DNA of 64,000 nt from Myxococcota bacterium (GTDB lineage Bacteria > Myxococcota_A > UBA796 > UBA2385), in assembly GCA_044344255.1 (NCBI GenBank), contig JBIJDH010000019.1:96001-160000 (forward strand), in the 5' to 3' direction. Below, piece by piece: positions 365-20,300 of this stretch. Made by a program: the position numbers and the translations under genes. The notes under the pieces were generated by a model, which was not told the DNA's origin, searched no databases, and was given only the letters and a program-made list of their open reading frames with translations. Each line of letters starts with the position of its first letter. The stretch's first letter is position 1.

Positions 365-1270
365 TCAGGCGCCTCGGGCTTCGAGACGCTGGTCGAGGGC
401 CTGCCGGAGGTCTGTGCCCTCCATGAGGCGCCGCTGGTCCTGGTAGAAGGAGCCCCAGAGGATCGTGCCGTAGCTGCCGACGACGCCCATCCCGAGCCCG
501 TTGAGCACGAGGGTGGGCATGACGGCCCACATCGGGGGTGAGATCGCGGCCGGGCTGGTGGCGAGGCCGGCGCTGATGCCCCGCAGCGTGTACCAGAGGG
601 ACACGCAGAGGTTCGGCAGGCCCGTCACCGAGGTGATGGCGAGGCCGACGCCGAGCATGACGTGCAGCAGCAGCACGATGCGGAAGAGGGAGGACCCGCC
701 GGCGCCGTTCGCCGGGCGGTAGTGGGCGACCCGCAAGCAGCGGCGGATGGCGTCGGGGGGCCACTCATCGCCAAAGACCGTGACCGCCGTGAGCGGGGCG
801 AGCGCCATGATCGGGTAGAGGACCCCGAGCCCGCAGATACAGAGCGAGACGATGCCGATGGAGATGTAGATCAGCCAGCCCACCATGCTCGTCAGCCACC
901 ACCGCAGGCGGAGCGCCGCCTTGTAGGCCTCGAAGAGGCTGAGGCTCCGCCCGGCCAGCAGCTCCCGGTAGGCCACCATCTTCGCGAGCTCCGCCCAGAT
1001 GGTGAGCACGACCGCGATCGCCCCCATCACGCCGAGCACGAGGTAGAAGCCCATCATCCGGCTGATGAGCCCCATCGGATCCCGGGACATCTCGGCGGGG
1101 TCGCCCATGATCCCCTTCATCATGCCCTGGTTGGCCACCTGGGCCACCACGCCGAAGAGCGTCGGCACGAGCGCGATGGGCACGAGGGTGCGCCAATGTT
1201 GAAGGAGGAAGCTGAGCGGCTGGTCGGCCAGCTCGGCGGTGGTGGTGGGGCTTGAGGTTTGGAGTCTCAC
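365..1270 (-). CDS. Multi-pass membrane protein of the RDD/SpoIIM/MoxR-type cluster
   Basis: 301 aa with about 6 hydrophobic helices; C-terminal YQDQRRLMEGTDL resembles the Y.D.R.R.EG.DL motif of this family. Confidence 0.75.
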   Translation of the reverse strand: MRLQTSSPTTTAELADQPLSFLLQHWRTLVPIALVPTLFGVVAQVANQGMMKGIMGDPAEMSRDPMGLISRMMGFYLVLGVMGAIAVVLTIWAELAKMVAYRELLAGRSLSLFEAYKAALRLRWWLTSMVGWLIYISIGIVSLCICGLGVLYPIMALAPLTAVTVFGDEWPPDAIRRCLRVAHYRPANGAGGSSLFRIVLLLHVMLGVGLAITSVTGLPNLCVSLWYTLRGISAGLATSPAAISPPMWAVMPTLVLNGLGMGVVGSYGTILWGSFYQDQRRLMEGTDLRQALDQRLEARGA

Positions 1271-1283
1271 GGTCGGCGGCCCC

Positions 1284-2255
1284 TCAGGGTGTGCGCGCGC
1301 GGGGGGGGCCGACGCGCAGCGTGTAGAGCAGGAAGGTGGCCAGCAGGCCGATGCCCAGCGCCGCCTTGACCGGGGTGGGGATGTCCATCCGCGGCGAGAG
1401 GTTGCCCTCGAGGAGGCCGAGCAGCACGAACCAGGGCAGCGTGCCGGCCATCAGCAGGAAGGAGCGCCGCCCGCCCTCGGCGGCCGTGAGGCTGCGGGGG
1501 CGGTTCCCGGAGCCGACGAGGCCGCGAGTGAGCTCGAAGCCCGCCGCACCGGCGACGATGATCAGCGTGAGCTCGAGCGGCCCGTGCCCGCTGATGAAGG
1601 CGAAGACCCGGTCGAGCAGCTCATACCGCCAGCACAGCGCGAGCAGGCTCCCCACCATCGCCCCGTTGAAGAGCAGCAGCAGCGCCGTCCCCACGCCGAA
1701 CAGCCCGCCGAGGGCCCAGGCCTTCATGGCCACGCCCATGTTGTTCGTCGAGATGAAGCTCGAGAGGACCGAGCCGGGCATCGCCTCTCCGAGGTGGTCG
1801 GTCCAGATCGTGCCCCGCCGGAGGCCCGCCACCCCCTCCGCCCCGAAGAAGAGGTCGCCCACCGAGGGCACCGCCCCCGTGAGCACGAAGCCGAACAGCA
1901 GCCCGAACACGAAGAGCGAGAGGGCCGCCCGCACGGCGGGGAGCGAGCCGCGGAACACCTCCGGGTAGCCGGTGCGGAAGAAGCGGAGCAGGCGCGGACC
2001 CCAGGGGGGCTCCACCCCGGTGAACAGCCGGTGGCCCTGGAAGGAGAGGGCGCGCAGCCGGCGCTCGGCCTCTGTGCCCGGGAAGTGGGTGCGAGCCCAG
2101 GCGAAGTCGGAGAGCACCCGACGATGGGCCGCGGCGAGCTGCTCCACCTCGGCGAGGTCAAGGCGCCCGAGCCCGCCGGTCTTCACGCGGCCGAGCAGGC
2201 GCTCAGCGGCCTCCCAGTCGGGGCCGCCACGGCGCAAGAAGGCCGGGTAGTCCAC
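1284..2255 (-). CDS. Stage II sporulation protein M (SpoIIM/DUF95) family membrane protein
   Basis: Motifs FISTNNMGVA, LLFNGAMVG, HGPLELT, GLLEGNLSP. Confidence 0.85.
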   Translation of the reverse strand: MDYPAFLRRGGPDWEAAERLLGRVKTGGLGRLDLAEVEQLAAAHRRVLSDFAWARTHFPGTEAERRLRALSFQGHRLFTGVEPPWGPRLLRFFRTGYPEVFRGSLPAVRAALSLFVFGLLFGFVLTGAVPSVGDLFFGAEGVAGLRRGTIWTDHLGEAMPGSVLSSFISTNNMGVAMKAWALGGLFGVGTALLLLFNGAMVGSLLALCWRYELLDRVFAFISGHGPLELTLIIVAGAAGFELTRGLVGSGNRPRSLTAAEGGRRSFLLMAGTLPWFVLLGLLEGNLSPRMDIPTPVKAALGIGLLATFLLYTLRVGPPRARTP

Positions 2256-2258
2256 CGA

Positions 2259-2984
2259 TCAGCCCGTCACGGCGAAGGCGGCGCGAAGCGAGGGGAGCGG
2301 GCTCTTGAGGTCAGCCCCCTCGGGCAGGAAGCCTGGGTGATCACGCCGAATCCAGGTGAGCAGCTTGCGCGCGAGGTCGAGCTGCGCCGCCACCTCCATG
2401 CCGTCCACCCGCGCGAAGAAGGCCTCGACCAGCACGACGTCCTCGGCGCGGAAGCCCTCGGGGAAGCGGGTGGGCCGGGGGGCGGCGCGCGCCTCCCGCT
2501 CGACCACCACCACGGTGCCGGCGAAACGATCGCCGAGGCGCTGGTGGCGCTCGGTGAGCACCATCGAGGCCACCCCGATGGCGCCCCCGCCGGGGAAGAG
2601 GTCGAGCGGCCGCGCCAGGTTGCGGATGAGAGAGCCCACCACGCCGACGTCTCCGCCGTCAGCGGTCACCACCCGGAGGCCCACGAGGCGCTTGCCGGGG
2701 GTCTGCCCGTTCCAGGCCTGCTCGAAGGCGATGAACCAGCCCATCTCCAGGGTGAACCACCCGACGATGAGGAGGGCGACGAAGATGCCCCACTGGTCGG
2801 TGTCGGCGATGACAGAGCCCATCACGCCGAGGACCTGGAGCACGAGGATCAGCACCAGCGCGATGAGGAGCAGGCAGAGCCAGTCGGCGAGGTAAGCGAG
2901 GCTGCGGCTGCCGGCCGAGGCCAGGGGGAGCTCGAGGGGAACATCGAGGGCGCCGATGAAGCGCCCCTGGTCAGACTCGGGCAT
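2259..2984 (-). CDS. RDD family membrane protein
   Basis: ASAGSRSLAYLAD, GQTPGKRLVGLRVV, IRNLAR.LD, QRLGDRFAGTVVV. Confidence 0.9.
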   Translation of the reverse strand: MPESDQGRFIGALDVPLELPLASAGSRSLAYLADWLCLLLIALVLILVLQVLGVMGSVIADTDQWGIFVALLIVGWFTLEMGWFIAFEQAWNGQTPGKRLVGLRVVTADGGDVGVVGSLIRNLARPLDLFPGGGAIGVASMVLTERHQRLGDRFAGTVVVVEREARAAPRPTRFPEGFRAEDVVLVEAFFARVDGMEVAAQLDLARKLLTWIRRDHPGFLPEGADLKSPLPSLRAAFAVTG

Positions 2985-3091: not shown

Positions 3092-4189
3092 ATGCGCCCA
3101 CCCGCTGCCCTGCTCTCCGCCGCCGGGGCGCTCGCCCTCGCCGCCGCGCTGCTCCCCGCCTGCTCCGGCGACAAGGGCTCGACCGGCGCCGACAGCGCCG
3201 CCGAGGGGGACGCCGACACCGACGCCGACGCCGACGCAGACTCTGACACCGACATCGACGTCGACTGCGAGGCCCGCCTCGCCGAGGGCAAGTTCTTCCC
3301 GGACGGGGCCGTCTGGTTCGAGGACGTGAGCGGCGCACCCACCGACCCCACCTCCGAGGAGGTCATCACCTTCCTCCAGGGCTACGGCTGGGGCCTCGGC
3401 CGCCTCCAGATCGACTTCTCGATCGAGGTGCTCACCGCCGACGCCGACACCCCGAAGATGAGCTTCGACCCCAGCCCCGACTATTTCTACAGCCCGGACT
3501 GCGACCAGCAGGACATCCCCATCCCCGAGGGCGGCGCCCTCGAAGGTGAGGCGGGGTACTCCTGCTCCGACTACGAGAACAGCGACTGCCACCTGATCGT
3601 CGCCGACTGCGACGCCGGCCGCCTCTACGAGATGTGGAAGGCCGACATCGACGGCGCGAATTTCCAGGGGGGCTGCCTCGCCGTCTGGGACATGAACACG
3701 GTCTACGGGCCGGAGGGGCGCGGTGAACAGTGCACGAGCGCCGACGCCGCCGGCTACCCGATCGCGCAGCTCCTCTTCACCGCCGATGAGGTGGCGGCCG
3801 GCCACATCGACCACGCCATCCGCTTCATCCTGCCGAACGACGCCATCCGCGACAGCGGCTTCATCGCGCCGGCCACGCACGCCACCACCGCCGGGGACGA
3901 CCCGCCGAGCGGGGTCCTCTACGGCGCCCACCTTCGCCTGCGCGCCGACTACCCCGTCGACACGCTGCCGAACGAGGCCTCCAAGGTGGTGGCCCGGGCG
4001 CTGCAGACCTACGGGATGTACCTCGCCGACGGCGGCAACGTAGCGCTCACGGCCCGCAGCGACCGCTCCACCACCGCGAAGTGGGCCGACCTCATGGAGT
4101 CGCGTGACCTCGAGGACATCGAGCCCGCCGACTTCGAGCTCCTCGAGATGGGGCCCGAGATCCCGCTCACCTTTGACTGCGCGCGCTGA
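3092..4189 (+). CDS. Uncharacterised lipoprotein with Asp-rich linker and conserved C-terminal domain
   Basis: GGAGG RBS, lipobox LPAC, DADTDADADADSDTD linker; motifs DCHLIV, LYEMW, TSADAAGYPI, IDHAIRF, ALQTYGMYLADGG. Confidence 0.8.
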   Translation: MRPPAALLSAAGALALAAALLPACSGDKGSTGADSAAEGDADTDADADADSDTDIDVDCEARLAEGKFFPDGAVWFEDVSGAPTDPTSEEVITFLQGYGWGLGRLQIDFSIEVLTADADTPKMSFDPSPDYFYSPDCDQQDIPIPEGGALEGEAGYSCSDYENSDCHLIVADCDAGRLYEMWKADIDGANFQGGCLAVWDMNTVYGPEGRGEQCTSADAAGYPIAQLLFTADEVAAGHIDHAIRFILPNDAIRDSGFIAPATHATTAGDDPPSGVLYGAHLRLRADYPVDTLPNEASKVVARALQTYGMYLADGGNVALTARSDRSTTAKWADLMESRDLEDIEPADFELLEMGPEIPLTFDCAR

Positions 4190-4231: not shown

Positions 4232-5161
4232 TCAGCCCGTCACAGCCGCCCAGCCCCGCTCGAGCTCCGCAGGGTCGATCCCCCGCCCGATCACGACCAG
4301 CGCGCTCTCGAGCGGGGGCTCCATCGTACCGGGGCCGAGCTCGAGCCACTGATAGACGCCCTGCGCCACCACCGCCGTGCTGTGGCCAGGGCAGCGGAAG
4401 ATGCCCTTGAGGCGGAGCAGCTCCCAGCCGCGGCGGGAGGCGATGAACTGGAGGTACATCTTGAGCTTCGCGAGCTCGACCGGCCCGCCGCGGAGGCTCT
4501 TGGTCATCACGCCTGCGGAGTGTGTGACCACCTCGGGGATCTGCCAGCGCGCCGGGTCCGCGCCGCCGATTCGCAGGAGAGGCGCCACGTCGACCGCCGC
4601 CCGCTCCGAGCGGGAGAGGGTGGCGAGCGGAGAGACGGCCCGCACCGCGGCCTCGGCCCCCTCGATGTCGTCGGCCTGATCGACGTGGTTGAGCAGCACG
4701 CGGTCGGCGGTGGCGAGCTGGGCGGCCACCTCGGGGTGCTGGTCGAGCTGCGCCACCACCCGCCCGGCGTGGGCCACCGCCACCACCCCGTCCACCCGCG
4801 TCTGAGCGGCGAGGGTGGGGTCGAGCAGGAAGGTCTGCAAGAGCGGGCCGGGCGTCGCCAGGCCGGAGGTCTCGATCACCACCCGCTCGAAGCGCAGGGG
4901 CCTCCACCAACGGGAGCGTCTCTGTAACAAATCGAGGGCGGTGACCCGCAGGTCCTCCCGCACCTCGCAGCAGACGCAGCCGTTGCGGAGCTCGACCACG
5001 CGGTCCGAGGCGCCGACGACGAGCCGCCCGTCAATGCCGAGCGCGCCGAACTCGTTGACGATCACGGCGGTCGGCGGCGTCGCGGGGTCGCTCAGCAGCC
5101 GGTTGAGCAGGGTGGTCTTGCCGGCGCCGAGGAAGCCCGTGAGGAGCGTGACCGGGACCAT
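4232..5161 (-). CDS. COG0523 / CobW-family G3E GTPase (putative metallochaperone)
   Basis: LTGFLGAGKTT, VNEFG, NGCVCC, IETSGLA, C-terminal LLRLKG and LVVIGR. Start overlaps the upstream stop by 1 nt (TGATG). Confidence 0.92.
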   Translation of the reverse strand: MVPVTLLTGFLGAGKTTLLNRLLSDPATPPTAVIVNEFGALGIDGRLVVGASDRVVELRNGCVCCEVREDLRVTALDLLQRRSRWWRPLRFERVVIETSGLATPGPLLQTFLLDPTLAAQTRVDGVVAVAHAGRVVAQLDQHPEVAAQLATADRVLLNHVDQADDIEGAEAAVRAVSPLATLSRSERAAVDVAPLLRIGGADPARWQIPEVVTHSAGVMTKSLRGGPVELAKLKMYLQFIASRRGWELLRLKGIFRCPGHSTAVVAQGVYQWLELGPGTMEPPLESALVVIGRGIDPAELERGWAAVTG

Positions 5162-5691
5162 CAGTCCCCGAGGTAGCCGAGCGCCTTGAGCGCCTCGATC
5201 TCCGCAGGGTCCCCCGTCTTGGCGAGCTCGTCGATGGCCGCCTGGAAGGAGGGATCATCCGGGTACTTCTTCTTCCCGGCGTCGAGCACGCTCACCGCGC
5301 CAGGGCCGTCCCCGGCTGCGCGCAGCTTGTCGGCGAGGGCGCGGTACAGGGCGGGGTTGATCTGCGTCGGGTAGGCGCCGGTGAGCCGCTCGAGGCCGGC
5401 CACCACCTCCGCCCCCTTGCCGCCCTCGGCGAGGCCCTGGAGGCGCAGCGACTCGAAGCGCCAGGCCTTGGCCGGCTCCTTCGAGATGGCCTCGACCTTG
5501 AGGGCCTCATCGGCCTTGGCCACCGCGCCCGCGTAGTCCTTGGCCTGCAGCGCGGCCTCCACGTCCGCCTGCATCGCGGCGGCGTCGGGACCGCTCTCAC
5601 AGCCCGGGAGCGCGGCCAAAGAGAGGGCGAAGGCGAAGGCGAAGAAGAGGGCGCGTGGGCCGCGGAGGGCGCCCGCGAGGGAGGAGGGCAT
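5161..5691 (-). CDS. Helical (TPR-like) lipoprotein ending in an LKALGYLGD tail
   Basis: Lipobox LPGC, Ala-rich amphipathic helices, C-terminus EIEALKALGYLGD. Confidence 0.75.
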   Translation of the reverse strand: MPSSLAGALRGPRALFFAFAFALSLAALPGCESGPDAAAMQADVEAALQAKDYAGAVAKADEALKVEAISKEPAKAWRFESLRLQGLAEGGKGAEVVAGLERLTGAYPTQINPALYRALADKLRAAGDGPGAVSVLDAGKKKYPDDPSFQAAIDELAKTGDPAEIEALKALGYLGD

Positions 5692-5719
5692 GAACGGGCT
5701 CCGAGGGGATGATCCAAAG

Positions 5720-5754
5720 GGACGAGCGGCAGGACGAGAGGCAGGACGAGCAGG
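5720..5754. repeat. About 3 imperfect 12-bp tandem units (ggacgag[c/a]ggca) in the divergent intergenic region
   Basis: ggacgagcggca ggacgagaggca ggacgagcagg read directly. Confidence 0.7.
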
Positions 5755-5817
5755 CGCGCCTCACGGGTCTCTGCGAGGTAGCTCGTCTCCTGCCTGACGA
5801 CTATATGGCCGGCACGC

Positions 5818-8049
5818 ATGAGACCCTCGACCCCTCGCCCTTCGTCCCTCCTCCTGCGCTCAAACGTGCGGTTGGCTGTGCAGCTCTGCCTGTTCAGCCT
5901 GCTGCTCTGGCCCAGCGCGGCCTGGGCTTACATCGGCCCCGGCGCCGGCTTCGCCTTCGCAGGCTCCCTGGCCGTGATGCTGGCGGCCTTCGCCCTCGCG
6001 GTGGGCACGATCCTGCTCTGGCCGATCACCTTCGTGATCCGCACGATCCGGGTGGGCAACCCCTTCAAGCACGCCCTGGCGAAGCGGGTGATCATCATCG
6101 GCCTCGACGGGATGGACCCTGGCATCACCTCCCGCTTCATGGCCGAGGGGCGCCTGCCGAACCTGAAGAAGCTCGCCGATCAGGGGGTCTTCCGCCCGCT
6201 CAACACCTCGAACCCCTCGATGTCGCCGGTCGCCTGGTCGAGCTTCGCCACCGGCGTGGACCCCTCCCGCCACGGCATCTACGACTTCCTCACGCGTGAC
6301 CCCTGCACCTACGCGCCGATGCTGTCCTCCACCGACATCCAGAACGCCGAGAAGGTCTGGAACATCGGCAAGTACATCATCCCGCTCGGAAAGCCCAAGA
6401 TCAAGCTCCTCCAGAAGTCCCAGGCCTTCTGGAAGCTCCTCGGCGAGCGGCACATCCCCTCGATCATCCAGCGCGTGCCGATCACGTTTCCGCCGGTGCC
6501 CTTCCGCGGCCTGCTGCTGTCGGGCATGTGCGTGCCCGACCTGCGGGGGAGCCAGGGCACCTTCAGCTTCTTCTCCACGGCCAGCGCGGACGGCAAGGCC
6601 GCCTTCACCGGCGGGGAGCAGACCGTCCTCCGCCGGAAGGGCGACGTCATCCGCTCCCGCATCGTCGGCCCCGACAACGGCATGGTCAAGGACGGCGGGC
6701 GGATGACCCTGCCCTTCACGATCACGGTGTCCGAGGCCGCGGGTAAGGTCCACGTCGCGATCGACGGCGGCGAGGCCTTTGACCTCCCGCTCAAGGCCTA
6801 CTCCGCCTGGATCCACCTCACCTTCGAGGCCGGCCTCGGCGTGAAGGTGGCGGGTATCGCCCGCTTCTACCTGAACTCGATCTCGCCCGACGTCAACCTC
6901 TACATGACGCCGATCCACATCGACCCGGAGTCTCCGGCGATGCCGATCAGCCACCCTGAGGTCTACGCGGTCTACCTCGCCAAGAAGTTCGGCCCCTACG
7001 CCACCCTCGGCCTCGCCGAAGACACCTGGGCGCTGAACGAGCGGGTCATCGACGAGGGCGCGTTCTTTGACCAGGCGATGGCCTTCTGCGACGAGCGCGA
7101 GAAGATGCTCTTTGACGCCATCGAGCACACCCGCACGGGCCTCGTCACGACCGTCTTCGACACGACCGATCGTGTCCAGCACATGTTCTATCGGTACCTG
7201 GACCCCACCCACCCTGCGAACCGCGACAAGGAGGCCACCGCCTACGCCGACGCCATCCAGCGTGTCTACACACACATGGACGGCATCATCGGCAAGGTGG
7301 CCGAGAAGCTGGGCGACGACGCCGTGCTGATGGTGATGAGCGACCACGGCTTCACGAACTTCCGCCGCGGCGTGAACATCAACTCCTGGCTGCGCGACAA
7401 CGGCTACCTCTTCCTCAAGGACGGCAAGACCACCTCGGGCGAGTGGTTCGAGGACGTCGACTGGTCGCGCACCCGCGCCTTCTCGCTCGGGCTCACCGGG
7501 CTCTTCATCAACCGCAAGGGGCGCGAGCAGTCCGGCATCGTCGAGGAGGGGGAGGCCTACCGCGCCCTCTGTGACGAGCTCGCCGCCGGCCTCGAGGCGC
7601 TGATCGACCCCGAGACGGGCGGCCGCGCCATCCGCCACGTCGAGGCCGCTTACAAGTGCTTCGACGGGCCCTACCGCCTCGACTCCCCCGATCTGCTCAT
7701 CGGCTACGAGGGCGGCTACCGGCACTCCTGGGAGTGCGCGACCGGCTCCTGCACCCCCGAGGTCTTCCGGGACAACACCAAGAGCTGGTCGGGCGACCAC
7801 TGTGTCGATCCCTCGATCGTGCCCGGTGTCTTCTTCTGCAATCGTACGATCCTGGACGAGACGCCGCACATCATGGACATCCCCTTCTCCGTCCTGTCGC
7901 TCTTCGGCGCCAAGCCGCCCGGCTACATGCAGGGGAAGATGCTGTTCGCCAAGGCCGGCGAGCAGGCCGGCGTGCGGGGCCCCCTCGACCCCCGCACCCT
8001 CTCCCAGTCGGGCTCGGCGCCCGGCGCGCTCGTCTCGAAGGAGCGCTGA
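5818..8049 (+). CDS. Alkaline phosphatase superfamily (NPP/type I phosphodiesterase-like) protein with signal peptide, YIGPG motif and TM anchor
   Basis: Catalytic set GLDG, SPVAWS, DRVQH, SDHG, SGDH; N-terminus ...SAAWA-YIGPGAG-hydrophobic helix-RTIR. Confidence 0.88.
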   Translation: MRPSTPRPSSLLLRSNVRLAVQLCLFSLLLWPSAAWAYIGPGAGFAFAGSLAVMLAAFALAVGTILLWPITFVIRTIRVGNPFKHALAKRVIIIGLDGMDPGITSRFMAEGRLPNLKKLADQGVFRPLNTSNPSMSPVAWSSFATGVDPSRHGIYDFLTRDPCTYAPMLSSTDIQNAEKVWNIGKYIIPLGKPKIKLLQKSQAFWKLLGERHIPSIIQRVPITFPPVPFRGLLLSGMCVPDLRGSQGTFSFFSTASADGKAAFTGGEQTVLRRKGDVIRSRIVGPDNGMVKDGGRMTLPFTITVSEAAGKVHVAIDGGEAFDLPLKAYSAWIHLTFEAGLGVKVAGIARFYLNSISPDVNLYMTPIHIDPESPAMPISHPEVYAVYLAKKFGPYATLGLAEDTWALNERVIDEGAFFDQAMAFCDEREKMLFDAIEHTRTGLVTTVFDTTDRVQHMFYRYLDPTHPANRDKEATAYADAIQRVYTHMDGIIGKVAEKLGDDAVLMVMSDHGFTNFRRGVNINSWLRDNGYLFLKDGKTTSGEWFEDVDWSRTRAFSLGLTGLFINRKGREQSGIVEEGEAYRALCDELAAGLEALIDPETGGRAIRHVEAAYKCFDGPYRLDSPDLLIGYEGGYRHSWECATGSCTPEVFRDNTKSWSGDHCVDPSIVPGVFFCNRTILDETPHIMDIPFSVLSLFGAKPPGYMQGKMLFAKAGEQAGVRGPLDPRTLSQSGSAPGALVSKER

Positions 8050-8050
8050 G

Positions 8051-10132
8051 ATGCGGCCCGGCGCCCCTCCGCACGCCCCCCGCTCGCCCTGGCGACGGGT
8101 CGGCCTCTCCGCCGCCGCCACGCTCGGCTTCGGCCTCGGCCTCCTGCCCGCCTGCGACACGCCCCCGCCCGCCGGGCCCGGCGTCTTCGTGCTCGGCGTG
8201 GACGGCATGGACCCCGTCATCCTCCGCCGCCTGATCGACGCCGGCCGGATGCCGAACCTCGCCAAGCTGGCGGCCAACGGGAGCTTCCAGGAGCTCGGCA
8301 CCTCGAACCCGCCCCAGAGCCCCGTCGCCTGGTCAAACTTCGTCACCGGCGAGGATCCAGGCGGGCACGGCATCTACGACTTCGTCCACCGCGACCCCAA
8401 GACCTACCTCCCCACCTCCTCGGCCACCCCGGCCCCCGGCGAGCCGCCCTCCTCCATCGACGTCTTCGGCTACTACCTGCCGATCGGCGGCGATGACGTG
8501 GTGAACAACCGCTCCGGCACCCCCTGGTGGGACTCCCTCCACGGCGCCGGGGTCGACGTCGAGGTCTACCGCATCCCCGGGAACTACCCGCCCACCCCCT
8601 CCGAGGCCCGCACCCTCTCCGGGATGGGCACCGTCGACATGCGCGGCGGCTACGGCATCTACTCCTGGTTCACCGATCAGGCGGTGACCTCGAAGGAGGC
8701 GCTCAAGGGGGACATCCAGCTCGTCACCGTCGAGGACTACGACCTCGACGGCAAGGGCGACACCGTGAAGGGCAAGCTCAAGGGGGCCCCCGACATCTTC
8801 CACCTGCCCCCCGGCCAGATCCCGACAGAGAGCGACTACCTCACCGCCGCCTTCACCGTGTCGATCGACCCCACCGAGGACGTCGCCTTCATCCGCTTCG
8901 GCTCCCCGGGCGACGGCGGCGCCGAGGCGCTGCTGCGCGAGGGCGAGTGGACCGACTGGATGAACGTCAGCTTTGACGCCCTGCCCGCCGGCGCCCTCCC
9001 CCTCGCCGGTGCGGTGCGCTTCTACGCCAAGGAGCTGCGCCCCGCCTTCAAGCTCTACGCCTCCCCGGTCAACATGTCGGCCGAGGAGCCGCCCCAGCCC
9101 ATCTCCACCCCCGACGAGTTCGCCCCCGACCTCGCCCTCGCGGTGGGCGGCGGCTTCTACACCCAGGGGATGCCCGAGGAGACCAACGCCCTCCGCGACG
9201 GCACCTTCACCGACGACGACTACGAGCGGCAGGTCCACCTCGTGATGGAGGACGCCGAGCGCATGCTCAGCGTGGCCCTCGACCGCTTCCAGCCGGGCGA
9301 CGCCACCTTCTTCTACCTCTCCGACATCGACCTCCAGTGCCACATGCTCTGGCGCCACGGCGACCCGAAGCAGCCCGGCGGCCTCGCCCACCCCGCCTAC
9401 GAGCCCGAGTCCGCCCAGGCCCACGCCGACGACATCGACGGCTACTACGAGAACGTCGACCGCCTCGTCGGCAAGATCGTGAGCGGGCTGCCCGCCGACT
9501 CCCTCCTCCTCGTGATGAGCGACCACGGCTTCCAGCCTTTCACCCGCAAGGTCCACCTGAACAGTTGGCTCCGGGACAACGGCTACCTGACCCTCAAGGA
9601 CGGCAAGCGGGAGGGCCACATCGCGCACGGTGACGTGGACTGGTCGAAGACCCGCGCCTACGCCCTCGGCTTCAACGCGATCTACCTGAACCTCCAGGGT
9701 CGCGAGCGGGACGGCATCGTCTCCCCCGCGGAGGCCGGCAAGACCATGGCCGAGCTCCAGGCCGCCCTCACCGCCTTCACCGACCCCAAGGACGGCGCCA
9801 AGGTGGTGCTCCGGGTGGACAGAGGCGCCGACATCTACCACGGCGCCCGTGTCTCCGAGTCACCTGACCTCGTCGTCGGCTACGACCGCGGCTACGGGCA
9901 CTCCGACGAGTCCACGCTCGGCGAGCTGCCCGAGGCCGAGCTCGAGGACAACACCTCGAAGTGGTCGGGCAACCACCTCATGGCCCCCGAGGTCGTGCCC
10001 GGCGTGCTCCTCTCGAGCCGCCCCCTGCAAGGCAGCGGCTACGACCTCACCGACGTCACCGCCACGCTCTACGCCTGGTACGGCCTCGCCCCGCACGCCG
10101 GGATGATCGGCCAGCCCATCCTGACCCCCTAA
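8051..10132 (+). CDS. Alkaline phosphatase superfamily (NPP-like) lipoprotein, paralogue of the upstream gene
   Basis: ATG 8051 lies 1 nt after the upstream stop; lipobox LPAC (Cys codon 8153); GVDG, SPVAWS, DLQCH, SDHG, SGNH. Confidence 0.88.
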   Translation: MRPGAPPHAPRSPWRRVGLSAAATLGFGLGLLPACDTPPPAGPGVFVLGVDGMDPVILRRLIDAGRMPNLAKLAANGSFQELGTSNPPQSPVAWSNFVTGEDPGGHGIYDFVHRDPKTYLPTSSATPAPGEPPSSIDVFGYYLPIGGDDVVNNRSGTPWWDSLHGAGVDVEVYRIPGNYPPTPSEARTLSGMGTVDMRGGYGIYSWFTDQAVTSKEALKGDIQLVTVEDYDLDGKGDTVKGKLKGAPDIFHLPPGQIPTESDYLTAAFTVSIDPTEDVAFIRFGSPGDGGAEALLREGEWTDWMNVSFDALPAGALPLAGAVRFYAKELRPAFKLYASPVNMSAEEPPQPISTPDEFAPDLALAVGGGFYTQGMPEETNALRDGTFTDDDYERQVHLVMEDAERMLSVALDRFQPGDATFFYLSDIDLQCHMLWRHGDPKQPGGLAHPAYEPESAQAHADDIDGYYENVDRLVGKIVSGLPADSLLLVMSDHGFQPFTRKVHLNSWLRDNGYLTLKDGKREGHIAHGDVDWSKTRAYALGFNAIYLNLQGRERDGIVSPAEAGKTMAELQAALTAFTDPKDGAKVVLRVDRGADIYHGARVSESPDLVVGYDRGYGHSDESTLGELPEAELEDNTSKWSGNHLMAPEVVPGVLLSSRPLQGSGYDLTDVTATLYAWYGLAPHAGMIGQPILTP

Positions 10133-10167
10133 GCACCGCACCCCACGTACCGCCCTCAGGAGCCCCC

Positions 10168-10371
10168 ATGTTCGGCTTCGGCAAGAACGTCAGCGTCAAG
10201 ATCGACAAGGACCTCCACGCCCGCGTGGCCAAGGTGGCCGACGTGGCCGGCTACGCCACCGTGGAGGAGTTCATCCAGCACATCCTCGAGAAGGAGATGC
10301 TGCACTTCGAGGACACCAAGAACGACGCCGACATCCGCGCGAAGCTCAAGGGCCTCGGCTACATCTCCTAA
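10168..10371 (+). CDS. 67-aa protein with ribbon-helix-helix-like N-terminus and LKGLGYIS tail
   Basis: AGGAG RBS; MFGFGKNVSVKIDKDLHARVAKVADVAGYATVEEFIQHILEKEM...IRAKLKGLGYIS; typical host codon usage. Confidence 0.8.
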   Translation: MFGFGKNVSVKIDKDLHARVAKVADVAGYATVEEFIQHILEKEMLHFEDTKNDADIRAKLKGLGYIS

Positions 10372-10413
10372 GCCACCGCTCCGGCGCAGCGCACCACCGA
10401 TGGGCACCGTCCA

Positions 10414-11232
10414 GTGAACACGTTCAACCGAATCGCGAGCGCCATCTTCGACGTGCTGCTCGCGCCGCTGGGTCACACGCGGCCGTGGTTTGACCTGCTC
10501 CTCTGGCCGGTGCTGGCGGGCATCGTCGCCCTGCTCGTCTACAAGGCGATCAGCAACCAGGCGGGCATCACGCGGGCCAAGAACTTCATCCAGGTGCACC
10601 TCCTCGAGGTGGTGCTCTTCAAGGATGACCTTCGGGTCGTGCTCCCCGCGACGATGAAGGCCCTCGGCTACAACGTGCTGTACCTCGGCAACAACATCCT
10701 CCCGATGGTGGTGATGTTCGCGCCGATGACGGCGATCCTCGTCCAGCTCGTCTCGAACTACGGCTACGCCCCGCTGCCCGTCGGCGAGACCACGCTGCTG
10801 GTGGTCGAGCTCGACCGGGACAGCGCCGTGAAGCCGGCAGACGTCTCGCTCGTGCTCCCGCCGGGCGTCTCCCTCGACGCGCCCCCGGTGCGCACCGCCG
10901 ACGGCGAGGTCGCCTGGCGCCTCCGCCTCGACGCCCCGGGCGACCACGTGCTCCAGCTCCACGCCGGCGCCGAGACCGAGGAGAAGCTCCTCCAGGTGGG
11001 CGGCGAGGCGCGTAAGGTCTCCCCCCTACGCACGAAGTCGTGGGAGGCGCTGCTCTACCCAGCCGAGCCCGTCCCCGCCGCCGACTCCTTCGTCGCCAGC
11101 ATCCGCATCGACCGCCAAGACCAGGACCTCGGCCTCTTCCCCGCGGGAGAGAGCGGGATCCTGGGCTGGTTCTTCGGCTTCTCCCTCCTCGCCGGCCTCC
11201 TGCTCAAGGACCGCTTCGGCGTCACCCTCTAG
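10414..11232 (+). CDS. 3-TM membrane protein with extracytoplasmic beta-rich domain; possible EMC3/TMCO1 (Oxa1/YidC superfamily)-like topology
   Basis: Amphipathic N-helix, TM1 (LLWPVLAGIVALLVY), soluble helical hairpin, TM2 (LPMVVMFAPMTAILVQL), soluble domain, TM3 (GWFFGFSLLAGLLLK). The ORF is solid; the family call is tentative. Confidence 0.65.
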   Translation: MNTFNRIASAIFDVLLAPLGHTRPWFDLLLWPVLAGIVALLVYKAISNQAGITRAKNFIQVHLLEVVLFKDDLRVVLPATMKALGYNVLYLGNNILPMVVMFAPMTAILVQLVSNYGYAPLPVGETTLLVVELDRDSAVKPADVSLVLPPGVSLDAPPVRTADGEVAWRLRLDAPGDHVLQLHAGAETEEKLLQVGGEARKVSPLRTKSWEALLYPAEPVPAADSFVASIRIDRQDQDLGLFPAGESGILGWFFGFSLLAGLLLKDRFGVTL

Positions 11233-11239
11233 GGGTCCC

Positions 11240-11869
11240 ATGTCTGGCTTCCTCTCTTCTCTGTTCGGCGGCGGCAAGGCCAAGTACGGCGAGCCCCTCA
11301 TCATCGTCTCGGGGCTCCCCCGCTCGGGCACCTCGATGATGATGAAGATGCTGGAGGCGGGCGGTCTGCCGATCATGACCGACTCCATCCGCACCGCCGA
11401 CATCGACAACCCGAAGGGCTACTACGAGTACGAGCGGGTCAAGGACCTCGAGAAGGAGACGGACAAGTCCTACATCAAGGAGGGCCGAGGCAAGGTGCTC
11501 AAGGTCATCTCCTTCCTCTTGAAGGACCTGCCCGACGAGAACGCCTACAAGATCATCTTCATGCGGCGAGACCTCGGTGAGGTCATCGCGTCGCAGAACA
11601 AGATGATCAAGCACAGAGGCGAGAAGGACGACAGCGACGACAAGATGATGATCGACGCCTACATGAACCACCTCGCGGCGGTTCGGATCATGGTGCGCAA
11701 GCGGCCTAATTTCGAGATGGTGGAGATCCGCTACGACACCACCGTTCAGGATCCCAAGGAGGCCGCCCGCCAGGTCAACGTCTTCTTAGGCGGCAAGCTC
11801 AATGAGGCGGCGATGGGCCAGATGGTCGACGCCGACCTCTACCGCAACAAGAAGGGCGCCACCGTCTGA
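11240..11869 (+). CDS. PAPS-dependent sulfotransferase family protein (cytoplasmic)
   Basis: 5'-PSB loop VSGLPRSGTSMMM, NPKGYYE, 3'-PB-like IIFMRRDLGEVIASQ; no signal peptide. Confidence 0.85.
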   Translation: MSGFLSSLFGGGKAKYGEPLIIVSGLPRSGTSMMMKMLEAGGLPIMTDSIRTADIDNPKGYYEYERVKDLEKETDKSYIKEGRGKVLKVISFLLKDLPDENAYKIIFMRRDLGEVIASQNKMIKHRGEKDDSDDKMMIDAYMNHLAAVRIMVRKRPNFEMVEIRYDTTVQDPKEAARQVNVFLGGKLNEAAMGQMVDADLYRNKKGATV

Positions 11870-11916: not shown

Positions 11917-14121
11917 TCAAGCCCCCCGCGGGTCCTCGAGCGGGCCGGGCGCCTCCATCAGCCCCGGAGCCTCCAGCAGCCGGTCGGCGAGGCGGGTCCA
12001 GCGCTCATCCCCGCCGCGGGTGGTGACGGCGGTCTCGATGGCCCAGGGGTCTCCCACCACGCAGCAGAACTTCCGGGCGCGGGTGATGGCCGTATAGAGC
12101 AGGTTCCGCCGCAGCATGATGCGGTGGGAGCGGTGCATCGCCACGACGACCGCGGGGTACTCGCTCCCCTGGCTCTTGTGGATGGAGATGGCGTATGCGA
12201 GCTCGACGTCATCGAGCTTCTCACCGCTCACCTCCACCATGTGGCCCTCGAAGTCGATCAGCAGGGAGCGCTCCCGCGCCTCGACGATGCGCCCCGTCTC
12301 GCCGTTAAAGACCTCGTTGTCGTAGTCGTTGCGCACCTGGATGACGCGGTCCCCCTGGCGGTAGCGGCGCTCCCCGCGCTGGAGGGCGGGGCCGCTGGGG
12401 TTGAGCACCCCCTGGAGGCGCTCGTTCAAGGCCTCGGTGCCGAGCAGGCCGTTGTGCATGGGGGTCAGCACCTGCACGTCGCGGAGGGGGTCGAAGCCCT
12501 TGGCCGGCAGCCGTTTGGACACGATCTCCAGCAGGGCCGCCTGGGCCTGGAGCGCCTCCTCCCGCAGCACGATGAAGAAGTCCGGCGCCCCGGCCCCCTC
12601 CGGGGAGACGTCGCGCTCTCCGCTCTCGGGGGCCTCGCCGCCGTTGATGCGCCAGGCGTTACGCACGATGCCGGACAGGGCCGCCTGCCGGTAGACCTGG
12701 GTGAGCGTCGCCACCGGCACCTCGCCGGAGCTCACCATCTCACCCAGCACCCGCCCGGGGCCCACGCTCGGGAGCTGGTCGGCGTCGCCCACGAAGATGA
12801 GGCGGCAGCCGCTCGGCAGCGCGGCCAGCAGGCTCTCCATCAGGCGGATGTCCACCATCGAGGCCTCGTCTACGAGCACGGCCTGGGCGGGCAGGGGGTT
12901 GCGCAGGTCGCGGGTGAAGGCGCCCGTGCGCGGGTTGAACTCCAGCAGGCGGTGCAGCGTCTTCGCCTCCTGCCCGGTGGTCTCGGCGAGGCGGCGGGCG
13001 GCGCGGCCGGTGGGGGCGGTGAGCAGCCAGGCCTCGCCCCGCAGGGCCGCGAGGTGCACGAGGGCGCGGACGATGGTGGTCTTGCCGGTGCCCGGCCCGC
13101 CGGTGATCACGACGAGCCCGTGCTGGAAGGCCGCCTCGACCGCTCGCTTCTGGTCACTGTTCAGCGTGAGGCGGATCGCGGCCTCGGCCACCGCCACGTC
13201 GACGCGGGAGGGCCGCCCGGCGGCGACGAGGTCACGCAGCCCCTCGGCCACCCGCGCCTCGGCCCGCTCGAGCTCCGGGCTGTAGACGGGACGCCCCGCG
13301 GGGTCGGCGGCGGGGTGGACGACCACGCGGCCCTGCCGCTGGACCCGCAGCAGCGCGGCCGCGGCCTCCTCGCGGGGCACGGCGAGGTGGTTGGCCCGAG
13401 TCAGCAGCTCGCCCTCGGGCACGAAGCAGTGGCCCTGCCCCTCCGCCTCCTCGAGGAGGTAGACCACGGCCGCCTCCGCGCGGGCGGGGTCGCTCCGGCT
13501 GATGCCCTGGATGAGGGCGATGCGGTCGGCCGTGCGGAAGCCGACGCCGCGGATCTCCGAGGCCAGCCGGTAGGGCTCCTTCGAGACCACCCCCATCGTG
13601 CTCTTGCCGTAGCGCTCGAGGATGCGGTTCGCGAGGGCCTGTCCGATGCCGAGGCCGCGCAGCGAGGCCAGGACCTCGCGGTTCAGGCGGTCCTTGCTCC
13701 ACTGGGCGAGGATCTGCTCCGCCCGCTTGGGGCCGATGCCCGAGACCTCCTGGAGCTTCTCCGGCTCTTCGTCGAGGATGCGCAGGGTGTCGAGGCCGAA
13801 GCGGTCGACCACGCGCTTGGCGAACTCGGGGCCGAGCCCCTTGATGCTCGCGCTCGAGAGGTAACGCTCGAGGCCGAGGATCGTCTTTGGATCATCGACG
13901 AGGAGCTGGTCGACCTTGAAGCGCCGGCCGTATTGGCTGTGCTCTGTCCACTTCCCGACCATCGCGAGGTGCTGCCCCGCCGAGACGTGGCCGATCGGCC
14001 CCACGGCGATCACCTCGCGGCGGTCGGCCCCCCGCACGCGCGCGACCGCGAAGCCGCTGTCGGCGGCCTGGTAGGTGAAGCCGATGAGCTCCCCCTCCAG
14101 GCGGTCGTCCCAGGCGCTCAC
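11917..14121 (-). CDS. recD2: ATP-dependent RecD-like DNA helicase (RecD2)
   Basis: HhH repeats (IKGLGP, VSGIGP), ITGGPGTGKTT, LVDEASM, GDADQLPSVG, YAISIHKSQGSE, LLYTAITRA. Confidence 0.95.
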   Translation of the reverse strand: MSAWDDRLEGELIGFTYQAADSGFAVARVRGADRREVIAVGPIGHVSAGQHLAMVGKWTEHSQYGRRFKVDQLLVDDPKTILGLERYLSSASIKGLGPEFAKRVVDRFGLDTLRILDEEPEKLQEVSGIGPKRAEQILAQWSKDRLNREVLASLRGLGIGQALANRILERYGKSTMGVVSKEPYRLASEIRGVGFRTADRIALIQGISRSDPARAEAAVVYLLEEAEGQGHCFVPEGELLTRANHLAVPREEAAAALLRVQRQGRVVVHPAADPAGRPVYSPELERAEARVAEGLRDLVAAGRPSRVDVAVAEAAIRLTLNSDQKRAVEAAFQHGLVVITGGPGTGKTTIVRALVHLAALRGEAWLLTAPTGRAARRLAETTGQEAKTLHRLLEFNPRTGAFTRDLRNPLPAQAVLVDEASMVDIRLMESLLAALPSGCRLIFVGDADQLPSVGPGRVLGEMVSSGEVPVATLTQVYRQAALSGIVRNAWRINGGEAPESGERDVSPEGAGAPDFFIVLREEALQAQAALLEIVSKRLPAKGFDPLRDVQVLTPMHNGLLGTEALNERLQGVLNPSGPALQRGERRYRQGDRVIQVRNDYDNEVFNGETGRIVEARERSLLIDFEGHMVEVSGEKLDDVELAYAISIHKSQGSEYPAVVVAMHRSHRIMLRRNLLYTAITRARKFCCVVGDPWAIETAVTTRGGDERWTRLADRLLEAPGLMEAPGPLEDPRGA

Positions 14122-14124
14122 GGG

Positions 14125-15660
14125 CTACCGCGAATAGACTTCGTAGCGCTCGATGTGGTAGGTGCCCATCGCCCGCACCACCAGCCGCTTCTGGAGCTTC
14201 TGCTCCAGCGTCTCGAGGCTCGCCATCTCCTCCCCGTACATCATGTCCGCCACCGTGGGGCTGGCGTTGACGTAGATGGTGGGGCGGGCCGGGTTGCGGT
14301 TGGCCTCGCGGCGGACCTCGCGCAGGATGTCGAAGACCACCGTGGTGCGGGAGCGGGTGTAGCCGCGGCCCTCACAGTAGGTGCAGGGCTCCGAGATGCT
14401 GCGGATGAGGTCGTCCTGCACCCGCTTGCGCGTCATCTCGACGAGGCCGAGCTCCGAGATGCGCAGCACGTTGGTGCGGGCGCGGTCCTTCTTCAGCTCC
14501 TCCTCGAGGGCCCGGTAGACACGGTCGCGGTTCTGCGCCTTCTCCATGTCGATGAGGTCGAGGACGATGATGCCGCCGATGTTGCGGAGGCGGAGCTGGT
14601 AGACGATCTCCTTGACCGCCTCGAGGTTGATCGCGAGGGTGGTGTCCTCGAGCGAAGTGTTGCCGACGAACTTGCCGGAGTTCACGTCGATCGCGGTGAG
14701 CGCCTCGGTCTGGTCGAGGATCAAGTAGCCGCCGCTCTTCAGCCAGACCTTGCGGCCGAGGCTGCGGATGATCTCCGTCTCGATGCCGAAGGTGTCAAAG
14801 ACGGGGTCGTTGCCGCGGTAGAGCTGCACCCGCTCGCGGAGCACGGGCATGAAGTCCTTCATGAACTCCATGACCTCGTCGAAGAGCGAGCGGTCATCGA
14901 CCACCATGCGCTCCACCTCCTCGTTGAAGGCGTCGCGGACGACGCGCAGCACGAGGTCGTGGTCGGCGTGGATGAGCGAGGGGGCGCGGGCGGTGGAGGC
15001 CCCCTCCTGGATCTTGGCCCAGGTGCCGATGAGGTAGTCGATGTCCTGCTTGAGCGCGGTCATCGGCTGGCCGTCGCAGACGGTGCGGACGATGAAGCCG
15101 GCGCCCTTGGGGCGGTTCTTCTCGACGAATTCGCGGAGCTTGCGGCGCTCGCGGTCGCGGTCGATGCGGCGCGAGATGCCCACGTGGTCGACCGTCGGCA
15201 TGAAGACCATGTACCGACCGGGCAACGTGATGTGGGTGGTGATGCGGGCCCCCTTGGTGCCGATGGGGTCCTTCGCCACCTGGACCATGATCTCCTGGCC
15301 CTCCTTGATGAGGTCCTGGATCGGCGGCTGGCCGGCGCGCGGCTGCGAGCGGGGCGCGGCCTCGGCGACCGTGGCCTCCGGATCGTCGATCTCCTCCTCG
15401 GGGCCCGCGTTGTCGATGAATTCCGGGTAGATGTCGCCGACGTAGAGGAAGGCGGCGCGCTCGAGCCCAATGTCGACGAAGGCCGCCTGCATGCCGGGGA
15501 GCACGCGCACGACCTTCCCGAAATAGACATTTCCGACTTGGCTCTTGTTGTCTCCTCGGTCGACGTGCAGCTCGGCGAGCTGCCCGTTCTCCATCAGCGC
15601 GACGCGGGTCTCCCTCCCGGTCCGGTTGACGATGATCTCGTTACCCAAAGCGTACTCCAT
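14125..15660 (-). CDS. rng: Ribonuclease G (Rne/Rng family); start ATG 15660 or TTG 15648
   Basis: S1 domain VLPGMQAAFVDIG, KDPIGTKGARIT, LKSGGYL, IDVNSGKF, LRNIGGIIVLD, CTYCEG; no long RNase E C-terminal scaffold. Confidence 0.93.
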   Translation of the reverse strand: MEYALGNEIIVNRTGRETRVALMENGQLAELHVDRGDNKSQVGNVYFGKVVRVLPGMQAAFVDIGLERAAFLYVGDIYPEFIDNAGPEEEIDDPEATVAEAAPRSQPRAGQPPIQDLIKEGQEIMVQVAKDPIGTKGARITTHITLPGRYMVFMPTVDHVGISRRIDRDRERRKLREFVEKNRPKGAGFIVRTVCDGQPMTALKQDIDYLIGTWAKIQEGASTARAPSLIHADHDLVLRVVRDAFNEEVERMVVDDRSLFDEVMEFMKDFMPVLRERVQLYRGNDPVFDTFGIETEIIRSLGRKVWLKSGGYLILDQTEALTAIDVNSGKFVGNTSLEDTTLAINLEAVKEIVYQLRLRNIGGIIVLDLIDMEKAQNRDRVYRALEEELKKDRARTNVLRISELGLVEMTRKRVQDDLIRSISEPCTYCEGRGYTRSRTTVVFDILREVRREANRNPARPTIYVNASPTVADMMYGEEMASLETLEQKLQKRLVVRAMGTYHIERYEVYSR

Positions 15661-16030
15661 GAGGCCGCCGGGGCGCCCGGCCAGGAGCGGGCGCGCGGGG
15701 GACCCACTGCCGCGAGGAGCGGGGGGCCCAACACACGGTCGGCGCGCGCCGGATACCGGCACCGCCAAGCGGCCTTTCGGGTTGGTAGGATGAAGTTCAA
15801 GTAGAAAAAAGCCAGATAGTTCGAAATTTCCAGACCCGGACCAAATGCGTCGGGGACGGAAGCGATGTGAGGATGCGTAGAAGCAGAGAAGCCAGGATGG
15901 GGGGATCAGAGAAGTGAGAAGAGGGATTCGGGGAAGGGGGGAGGACGCAGGTCCTCTGCTCCTCGGTCATGCCACGGCGAGCGGGTTTCGTCAACGCCAG
16001 GGGGCCGCTCCGTGGTACATCTCCGCCGTC

Positions 16031-18190: not shown

Positions 18191-18220
18191 GCCGCCTCGG
18201 CCGCGGTCCGTACACGTCGG

Positions 18221-19683: not shown

Positions 19684-19926
19684 ATGAACCCCGTGAACAT
19701 CTACGAAGCCAAGACCCACCTCTCTGAGCTGGTCCAGCGTGCTGCGGGCGGCGAAGAGATCGTGATCGCGCGCAACGGGAAGCCTGCCGCTCGACTGGTC
19801 GCGTTGGCGGCCCAGCCCGCGCGTCAGCCAGGCGGATGGGAGGGCCGGGTCTGGGTCTCGTCGGACTTCGAGGAAGCCGACGACACGATCGCTGCGCTCA
19901 TGCTCGGCGGCGACAACCCGGTATGA
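19684..19926 (+). CDS. Phd/YefM family antitoxin
   Basis: VNIYEAKTHLSELV...GEEIVIARNGKPAARLV; ATGA overlap with the toxin gene. Confidence 0.93.
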   Translation: MNPVNIYEAKTHLSELVQRAAGGEEIVIARNGKPAARLVALAAQPARQPGGWEGRVWVSSDFEEADDTIAALMLGGDNPV

Positions 19927-20300
19927 GGCTCCTGCTCGACAGCCACGTCTTCCTTTGGTGGAAGGCGGCGGACCCGCGCCTCTCCCCCCAGATGGTGCGC
20001 GCGATCGCGGAGGCAGACGAGGTCTACGTCAGCGCTGCCACGGCCTGGGAATTGGGCCTCAAGGTCAGCCTTGGGAAGCTCCGGCTCCCGGAGTCCGTGG
20101 AGGACGGCGTCGCGGCAGCGGGGTTCACGGAGCTCTCCGTCCAGTTCCGTCACACACGGGAGGCCATCGCCCTGCCGCTCCACCATCACGATCCCTTCGA
20201 TCGAATGCTCGTGGCTCAGGCCCGCTGCGAAGGTCTCACGCTGATGACACACGACGACAAGATCACCCGATATGAAGTTTCAATATTGCGCGTTTCCTGA
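19923..20300 (+). CDS. vapC: VapC family PIN-domain toxin
   Basis: MRLLLDSHVFLWW, SAATAWE, HHDPFDRMLVAQA, LMTHD. Confidence 0.93.
   Translation: MRLLLDSHVFLWWKAADPRLSPQMVRAIAEADEVYVSAATAWELGLKVSLGKLRLPESVEDGVAAAGFTELSVQFRHTREAIALPLHHHDPFDRMLVAQARCEGLTLMTHDDKITRYEVSILRVS

Follow-up and report, generated by a model that had tools for sequence, protein, structure and literature searches.

A conserved cassette of paired AlkP-type enzymes, an Oxa1-like protein and tyrosine-tailed partners: a candidate trans-membrane sulfate relay

How might a group that is activated in the cytoplasm be handed to enzymes outside the inner membrane while its donor stays inside? The question is posed by a seven-gene cassette in a Myxococcota bacterium (assembly GCA_044344255.1, contig JBIJDH010000019.1), within a stretch of 64,000 nt that was analysed as a whole and is here called the window. 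The cassette encodes two paralogous enzymes of the alkaline phosphatase (AlkP) superfamily, A1 and A2, with the small protein S, the membrane protein M and the sulfotransferase-like ST, and divergently from these a lipoprotein, L, and a GTPase, G. Signals, natural fusions and a family tree place the catalytic domains of A1 and A2 on opposite faces of the inner membrane, an arrangement read from sequence and very probably correct. That the cassette acts as a trans-membrane sulfuryl relay, in which tyrosine carriers alternate with AlkP enzymes that use a Ser nucleophile, is a proposal to which we give an even chance. Coordinates are positions in the window, with domains of the open reading frames (ORFs) called by Pfam and NCBIfam; on re-reading the window, all seven ORFs were found where the original prediction for this DNA had placed them.

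4232-5161, minus strand: G, a COG0523/CobW-family GTPase with a GCVCC motif (Pfam CobW/CobW_C; cobW E = 3e-45).
5161-5691, minus strand: L, a TPR-like lipoprotein (Cys31; Pfam TPR) with the C-terminus LKALGYLGD.
5173-5175, minus strand: Tyr173 of L, a candidate periplasmic tyrosine carrier.
5777-5805, no strand: conserved boxes GGTAGC (5777-5782) and GACTATA (5799-5805), near-invariant or invariant columns in 14 aligned intergenic regions.
5818-8049, plus strand: A1 (enzyme 1), the putative inner AlkP/NPP-like enzyme (Pfam Phosphodiest); Ser136 at 6223-6225.
5929-5949, plus strand: mature N-terminus of A1, YIGPGAG, with Tyr38 as the first residue after signal cleavage.
8051-10132, plus strand: A2 (enzyme 2), an exported AlkP/NPP-like enzyme (Pfam Phosphodiest; Cys35); Ser90 at 8318-8320.
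10168-10371, plus strand: S, a ribbon-helix-helix (RHH)-like protein of 67 residues with the C-terminus LKGLGYIS; Tyr65 at 10360-10362.
10414-11232, plus strand: M, an Oxa1-superfamily (DUF106/Ylp1/EMC3-like) protein with three transmembrane (TM) helices and no Pfam match.
11240-11869, plus strand: ST, a small cytoplasmic protein with the fold of sulfotransferases that depend on 3'-phosphoadenosine 5'-phosphosulfate (PAPS), with a GLPRSGTS 5'-phosphosulfate-binding (5'-PSB) loop (Pfam Sulfotransfer_1/3).

The original prediction had put the two enzymes on opposite membrane faces, and signals, fusions and tree all support it. A1 has, as claimed, a cleavable signal followed by a hydrophobic helix and basic residues: an AxA-type cleavage site precedes Tyr38 (Ala at both -3 and -1 in 40/46 orthologues), after which YIGPGAG is followed by a single TM helix and then by a basic segment. 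This order, with the tyrosine peptide outside and a single TM helix behind it, argues that the catalytic domain is inside. The lipobox of A2 (Cys35) is slightly atypical (LPAC), and several A2 orthologues have Sec or Tat signals in its stead. Since lipoprotein, Sec and Tat signals all occur among the orthologues, the claim that A2 is an extracytoplasmic lipoprotein is firm as to export, while lipoprotein status is not obligatory. Natural fusions join ST to A1 (P0123) and A1 to S (P0130); in P0158 an exported family member precedes M in one chain, and in P0207 a family member carries an LGY-tailed sulfatase-like domain. These four agree with opposite faces. Among 80 metagenome loci from the wider family, five fuse M to a sulfatase-like domain, and all of these fusions tie successive proposed steps together. 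The tree (FastTree, midpoint root) was built from 127 cores, 113 from 150 distant representatives and 14 from cassette loci, with one protein reclassed by eye as a two-TM form and one dropped. One-TM forms cluster with A1 (37 sequences, support 1.0, two of them without the Tyr peptide), and two-TM forms belong to the other clade, together with A2, 60 proteins that carry a signal and 10 that do not.

A scan with an alignment of M found 56 loci in Myxococcota, Binatia, Planctomycetota, Acidobacteriota and the Planctomycetes-Verrucomicrobia-Chlamydiae (PVC) group, of which 39 were well covered (at least 6.5 kb upstream and at least 1 kb downstream of M). Synteny of the core elsewhere, as predicted, is seen in 38 of these 39, with A1, A2, S and M complete; all 39 have S, 38 have both paralogues (L095 only a single one), 32 have L, 32 have ST and 18 have G. 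A1, A2, S and M thus stand as the core of the gene set first claimed, while ST is interchangeable and the GTPase lineage-restricted; G was ruled out as a core member for that reason, being linked in only 18/39. Full-length orthologues of A1, S, M and ST pick out one and the same set of 11 among the 41 related genomes, including cases in which ST lies on a different contig; this co-occurrence is descriptive because kin genomes are not independent. Six loci labelled Klebsiella or Enterobacterales (L067, L071, L073, L051, L062 and L063) look mislabelled, their cassette proteins being 57-91% identical to the Myxococcota-like set here. Literature searches outside subscription journals and supplements turned up no account of the cassette, of the LGY tail or of the YIGPG/YIDPG peptide.

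The full catalytic sets claimed for both paralogues are invariant in alignments of their orthologues: D97, S136, D451/H455, D509/H510 and H661 in 46/46 for A1, and D51, S90, D427/H431, D491/H492 and H642 in 42/42 for A2. The two are about 35% identical. Across the wider family the two-metal ligands (D, DxxxH, DH, H) are kept in 123-127 of 127 members, and the nucleophile is Ser in 117 and Thr in 10. In an HMMER alignment the nucleophile Ser of A1 and A2 falls on the Thr of the SLTFP motif of Xac NPP, and the site matching N111 of that enzyme, an Asn that binds a phosphoryl oxygen, is Phe in 126/127 family members by column count. Neither A1 nor A2 contains the formylglycine motif C/S-x-P-x-R, having SPVAW instead. 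As phosphoester hydrolases the two would fit the NPP/alkaline phosphatase class in ligand set and nucleophile, but not at the Asn site.

The tyrosine noted earlier in both LGY tails proves invariant, Y65 in 58/58 S and Y173 in 35/35 L proteins, and is never Phe, whereas other Tyr positions tolerate Phe. In S, L60, L63, G64 and Y65 are invariant in an alignment of 37/37; in L the L-x-x-L-G-Y pattern is invariant in 34/34, against a mean column identity of 41%. Y65 of S is a candidate for the cytoplasmic tyrosine carrier and Y173 of L for the periplasmic one. As S is inside and L outside, however, these tails cannot cross the membrane, and the crossing step first proposed for them had to be given up; the better candidate is Tyr38 at the N-terminus of A1, on the outer face, which had gone unmentioned. 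Its peptide keeps Y, G, P, G, A and G invariant in 46 orthologues, a set selected by the motif Y[IV]GPG. Among the 150 distant representatives, 49 match [YF]-x-[GD]-P-G before the catalytic domain, all 49 with Tyr, and one TM helix (36 proteins) or two (13) separate the peptide from that domain. In 22 of the 80 metagenome loci a stand-alone Tyr-TM microprotein lies directly upstream of a signal-less paralogue, 10 of the YIDPG type and 12 of the Y[AG]GPD type, and the Tyr is kept despite this motif change. At locus L181 a single run of genes encodes a paralogue exported by Tat, a sulfatase-like protein, a Tyr-TM microprotein and a signal-less enzyme.

Two further observations touch these tails and peptides. 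ORFs of about 65-70 residues with LY[AG]GPDQ and one TM helix stand directly before a signal-less paralogue, usually with an LGY-tailed phosphodiesterase-like gene next, in L189, L197, L200, L203, L206, L210, L215, L226, L229, L236, L237 and L240, where no M was seen. A2 has a degenerate C-terminal tail of its own in the PVC-type loci L096, L102 and L104, with the tyrosine retained (LKALDYI, IKSLDYI and MRSLPYI, respectively), and L was not detected in the available flanking DNA.

M had been called insertase-like, and a profile of 29 M sequences upholds this, matching MJ0480/Ylp1 (PDB 5C8J; E = 6.8e-6) in all three TM helices and the coiled coil; EMC3_TMCO1 (PF01956) is matched by 2 of the 29 (best E = 3e-4). 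A hydropathy window gives two TM helices, the structure model and Ylp1 homology three. The model (predicted local confidence, pLDDT, 88.5) has the helix order of Ylp1, with the coiled coil on the cytoplasmic side and an Ig-like insert on the outer side. Helix order, an acidic outer loop (12 K/R, 20 D/E) and the N-terminal fusion to an exported enzyme point to an N-out/C-in orientation. Fold searches with M returned only Ig-like and generic helical-hairpin matches, without structural confirmation of the Oxa1 fold. The host has a housekeeping YidC elsewhere, so M would be a dedicated extra copy. The accessible part of PMC5868721 gives DUF106 proteins a three-TM core with a hydrophilic groove and describes the family as archaeal and eukaryotic.

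Is the cargo sulfate? The link to sulfate in the original prediction is borne out in that ST occurs in the same 11/41 genomes as the core, and that Sat and CysC lie inside the cassette in four Planctomycete loci; on sequence evidence of this kind, sulfate is the probable cargo, though well short of certain. ST scores 45 and 35.6 bits with Sulfotransfer_3 and Sulfotransfer_1, over the cut-off, and its GLPRSGTS is invariant in 33/33; its best PDB matches, TPST1/2 (E = 3e-4), are limited to the 25-residue PSB loop. In five of the seven well-covered loci without ST, an AlkP of about 300 residues occupies its slot, in four of them between ATP sulfurylase and adenosine 5'-phosphosulfate (APS) kinase and with a second RHH-LGY gene adjoining; ST and this AlkP never share a locus (n = 56). 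LGY tails are also found on sulfate-activating enzymes: in L248 the cassette has Sat and a CysC with this tail as neighbours, and L170, L173 and L183 have LGY-tailed CysD beside family members. These CysD proteins (L170:2135-2932, L173:2938-3879, L183:5853-6653) end in LR[AS]LGYM, and the ordinary host CysD (G000:C70:266835-267755, minus strand; G000 is the host genome) ends in the helix-GY tail KKKEGYF; the C-terminus of ATP sulfurylase is thus a possible origin of the LGY tail. The host genome (95% complete) has CysD/CysNC, and no match to a reductase for APS or PAPS was found in it.

The 300-residue AlkP is signal-less with a WTAP motif (G000:C18:29895-30713 and L079:3629-4585) and in Planctomycetes lies between Sat and CysC; it may be a loader that uses PAPS. 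It was ruled out as cassette-specific, occurring in 26/41 genomes and with a copy elsewhere in the host. In L194, L211, L220, L227, L231, L235 and L249 a third, signal-less Phosphodiest paralogue of about 430 residues stands before A1, replacing ST.

Which enzymes would receive the group outside? Strict C-terminal LGY tails occur on 17 of the 6188 called host proteins, against a mean of 0.79 (maximum 4) in 200 tail shuffles. Besides A1 and A2 the host has 46 AlkP-type proteins, 32 of them with an (L)GY tail. Their nucleophile is Thr in 28 and Ser in 2 (the other 2 are fragments), none of the 32 has the C/S-x-P-x-R formylglycine motif, and 22 have a hydrophobic N-terminus at the called gene start. 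The only two CxPxR sulfatases of the host have no tail; its matches to the FGE-sulfatase domain (PF03781), by comparison, number 48. Lone A2-like genes of three relatives lie in polysaccharide-export loci directly before an LGY-tailed enzyme (neighbours judged by eye). The original prediction had A2 modify an envelope acceptor directly; this was changed, and A2 probably feeds many separate LGY-tailed transferases. Agl30 and Agl31 of Halobacterium salinarum (VNG1056C/VNG1057C), AlkP-superfamily proteins, are required for N-glycan sulfation in vivo according to the portion of PMC11980604 available, and its Table 1 primers, decoded by hand, give them the ends HLEDLGYL and LEELGYT, both L-x-x-L-G-Y.

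Lone A2-like genes in or near polysaccharide-export loci are those of L041:10054-13752, L042:1-3879, L045:3414-7750, L043, L044 and L049, and three of them stand directly before a membrane-anchored LGY-tailed enzyme; the catalytic motifs are altered in L043, L044 and L049.

Put together, the relay would run as follows. PAPS would be made by CysD/CysNC, encoded elsewhere in the genome, and ST would sulfate Tyr65 of S. The sulfuryl group would pass from Tyr65 to Ser136 of the cytoplasmic A1 and on to Tyr38 in the short N-terminal tail of A1, which would travel along a hydrophilic groove in the Oxa1-like M and deliver it to Ser90 of the periplasmic A2. A2 would charge Tyr173 of L, the LGY tails of some 30 exported 'sulfatase-like' proteins with a Thr nucleophile, or both, and the Thr of each client would transfer the group to an acceptor, presumably envelope glycans or glycolipids. 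The gene set, its conservation, the catalytic residues, the ancestry of M, the fusions and the mobility of the Tyr-TM module were computed; from these we infer the rest. That the carriers hold the group covalently, as tyrosine O-sulfate, and that M plays a part in the transfer could go either way on the sequence record. We are doubtful of a broader version, in which M is an Oxa1-like protein repurposed as a channel, the Tyr tail cycles between the two AlkP sites, and activated sulfate is exported without a PAPS transporter to charge Thr-nucleophile 'sulfatases' through their LGY tails, which would make these the periplasmic sulfotransferases of many bacteria and archaea. Of the original interpretation, then, synteny, opposite faces, the identity of M, the tail tyrosines and the sulfate link survive; the crossing step and ST as a core member do not, and neither, probably, does A2 as final modifier.

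If the relay is real, it offers a route for sulfating envelope polymers outside the cytoplasm while PAPS is made inside, and a donor hypothesis for Agl30/Agl31. Many proteins annotated as sulfatases would be reassigned (32 in the host alone), tyrosine-shuttle chemistry would extend from acyl groups to sulfate, and an Oxa1-family protein would gain a role beyond protein insertion.

Several results weigh against this proposal. LGY-stop genes occur in 37/41 related genomes (with one control match in total) and the cassette in 11/41, so most tailed enzymes work without it; the expectation that LGY-tailed genes occur only where the cassette is failed on these counts. L is missing from 7/39 well-covered loci, and no M turned up in any of the 22 loci with microproteins, many of which lie on short contigs. 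The A2-side clade is not purely outer, since ten signal-less proteins fall in it. The nearest folds to A1 are two-metal phosphoesterases (SPAP/PafA and NPP, 9-14% identity), not sulfatases. In the A1 model Tyr38 is poorly determined (pLDDT < 50) and a single straight helix spans residues 4-42, and AlphaFold of mature A1 showed no docking of Tyr38; a complex prediction of A2, M, Zn and A1(38-89), scored 0.00 in two runs, counts neither way. Co-occurrence with APS kinase, which is in 40/41 genomes, does not discriminate, and in the 80 metagenome loci the ST profile matched none and PAPS-making genes were identified in 5, by an annotation that was not exhaustive. The accessible main text of PMC11980604 reports no in vitro assay of Agl30/31 and does not contain the words 'PAPS' or 'donor'. 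S, finally, could be a plain regulator: it has a weak NikR match (E = 0.011), falls in RHH/CopG clusters of the Atlas and, as in CopG/NikR proteins, has a near-invariant Lys in the strand.

This last point belongs to an account that keeps the cassette's tie to PAPS and to sulfation of the envelope. In it the LGY helix would be no more than a tag for docking or oligomerisation, S an ordinary RHH autoregulator and M a dedicated insertase for the N-out tail of A1, with sulfate crossing on a small or lipid carrier or by contact between enzymes. M does descend from an insertase family whose substrates have short translocated tails (PMC5868721, as far as available), 14 of the 49 Tyr peptides lie at most 15 residues from the called start without a signal peptide, and the native CysD tail also ends in helix-GY. 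We nevertheless think it rather unlikely: a mere tag does not sit well with a tail Tyr that is never Phe in S or L, an autoregulator with the lack of any conserved palindrome in 14 aligned intergenic regions, a dedicated insertase with the YidC the host already has, and the persistence of the module Tyr from YIDPG to Y[AG]GPD tells against it too.

Other accounts keep or drop the relay and change the chemistry. Exported AlkP enzymes with a Thr nucleophile such as LtaS, EptA and BcsG transfer phospho-groups, and the relay might be right with such a cargo (nucleotidyl, phosphoglycerol, phosphoethanolamine or similar), ST only modifying or regulating a component. Complete NPP-type ligand sets, phosphoesterases as nearest folds and the many family loci without a nearby sulfate gene are in keeping with this; the exact co-occurrence and fusion of ST with the core, Sat and CysC inside the cassette, Phe in 126/127 at the presumed phosphoryl-binding site and the precedent of Agl30/31, so far as described, make it unlikely. 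If A1 and A2 were instead plain hydrolases, phosphodiesterases of PAPS, of its by-product 3'-phosphoadenosine 5'-phosphate (PAP) or of nucleotides, clearing sulfotransferase by-products and scavenging outside the cell, then Pfam Phosphodiest and NPP as closest named families would be expected, but this would not account for why an insertase homologue and a Tyr-tailed protein accompany them in 38/39 loci, for the invariance of the outer Tyr, for the free-standing Tyr-TM microproteins or for the fusions, and we consider it very improbable.

The stop and start of G and L overlap at 5161; G scores under every NCBIfam equivalog cut-off and is possibly an accessory Zn chaperone for the two-metal enzymes A1 and A2. 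GGTAGC and GACTATA are probably back-to-back -10 elements of divergent promoters, judging from their conservation; a promoter/terminator scan with the sigma-70 consensus found no promoter and gave nothing above shuffles. Comparison of neighbourhoods among loci excluded from the unit both RecD2 (11917-14121) and the upstream lipoprotein gene (3092-4189, plus strand). The latter encodes 365 residues that match no Pfam family and include a low-complexity linker of acidic DxD type, and it adjoins the cassette in L050 too. Elsewhere in the window are RDD, SpoIIM and a third membrane gene in a single run (365-2984, minus strand), RecD2 and RNase E/G (11917-15660, minus strand), a TonB-dependent receptor with a copper-monooxygenase-like lipoprotein (15914-19489) and a small gene pair resembling, by eye, an antitoxin and a PIN toxin (19684-20300).

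How does the cassette compare with known systems? NodPQ-NodH and RaxPQ-RaxST combine PAPS supply with a PAPS-fold sulfotransferase, and RaxST sulfates a peptide tyrosine; their sulfated product is made in the cytoplasm before export, with no AlkP pair or insertase homologue. NPP and PafA/SPAP (PF01663; PDB 2GSN, 7N1S, 3Q3Q, 5TJ3) share with A1 and A2 the core fold, two-metal ligands and Ser/Thr nucleophile, whereas A1 and A2 differ by their low identity (9-14%), by inserts totalling about 250 residues, by a Phe where NPP has its Asn and by an obligate pairing of paralogues on two faces. Ylp1/MJ0480, EMC3 and TMCO1 have the amphipathic helix, TM1, coiled coil, TM2 and TM3 of M in the same order; M is bacterial, has an Ig-like outer insert, and is encoded in and fused to an enzyme cassette. 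Agl30/Agl31 resemble the dispersed LGY-tailed enzymes of the host in superfamily and LxxLGY tail, unlike A1 and A2, which lack the tail here, and the source as available describes no donor, carrier or membrane relay for them. One further report (PMC13390465), which in its accessible part concerns ordinary sulfotransferases, was set aside. In the DltB/DltX/DltD and PatA/PatB systems, according to the available part of PMC12148441, a Tyr-bearing membrane peptide serves as shuttle for acyl groups, free in DltX and fused in PatA, a pattern that the free or fused Tyr-TM module repeats. These systems share with our model a cytoplasmic donor, a membrane-tethered peptide Tyr, an extracytoplasmic enzyme with a Ser intermediate and an envelope acceptor. 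The cassette differs in having an N-terminal Tyr (YIGPG) rather than a C-terminal FxYxxF, AlkP-fold enzymes, an Oxa1-like protein in place of the channel and, probably, sulfate as cargo, and Pfam and NCBIfam found no MBOAT, AT3 or SGNH protein among its seven products. If the model is right, the cassette would work like the Dlt and Pat shuttles, yet not be a member of them.

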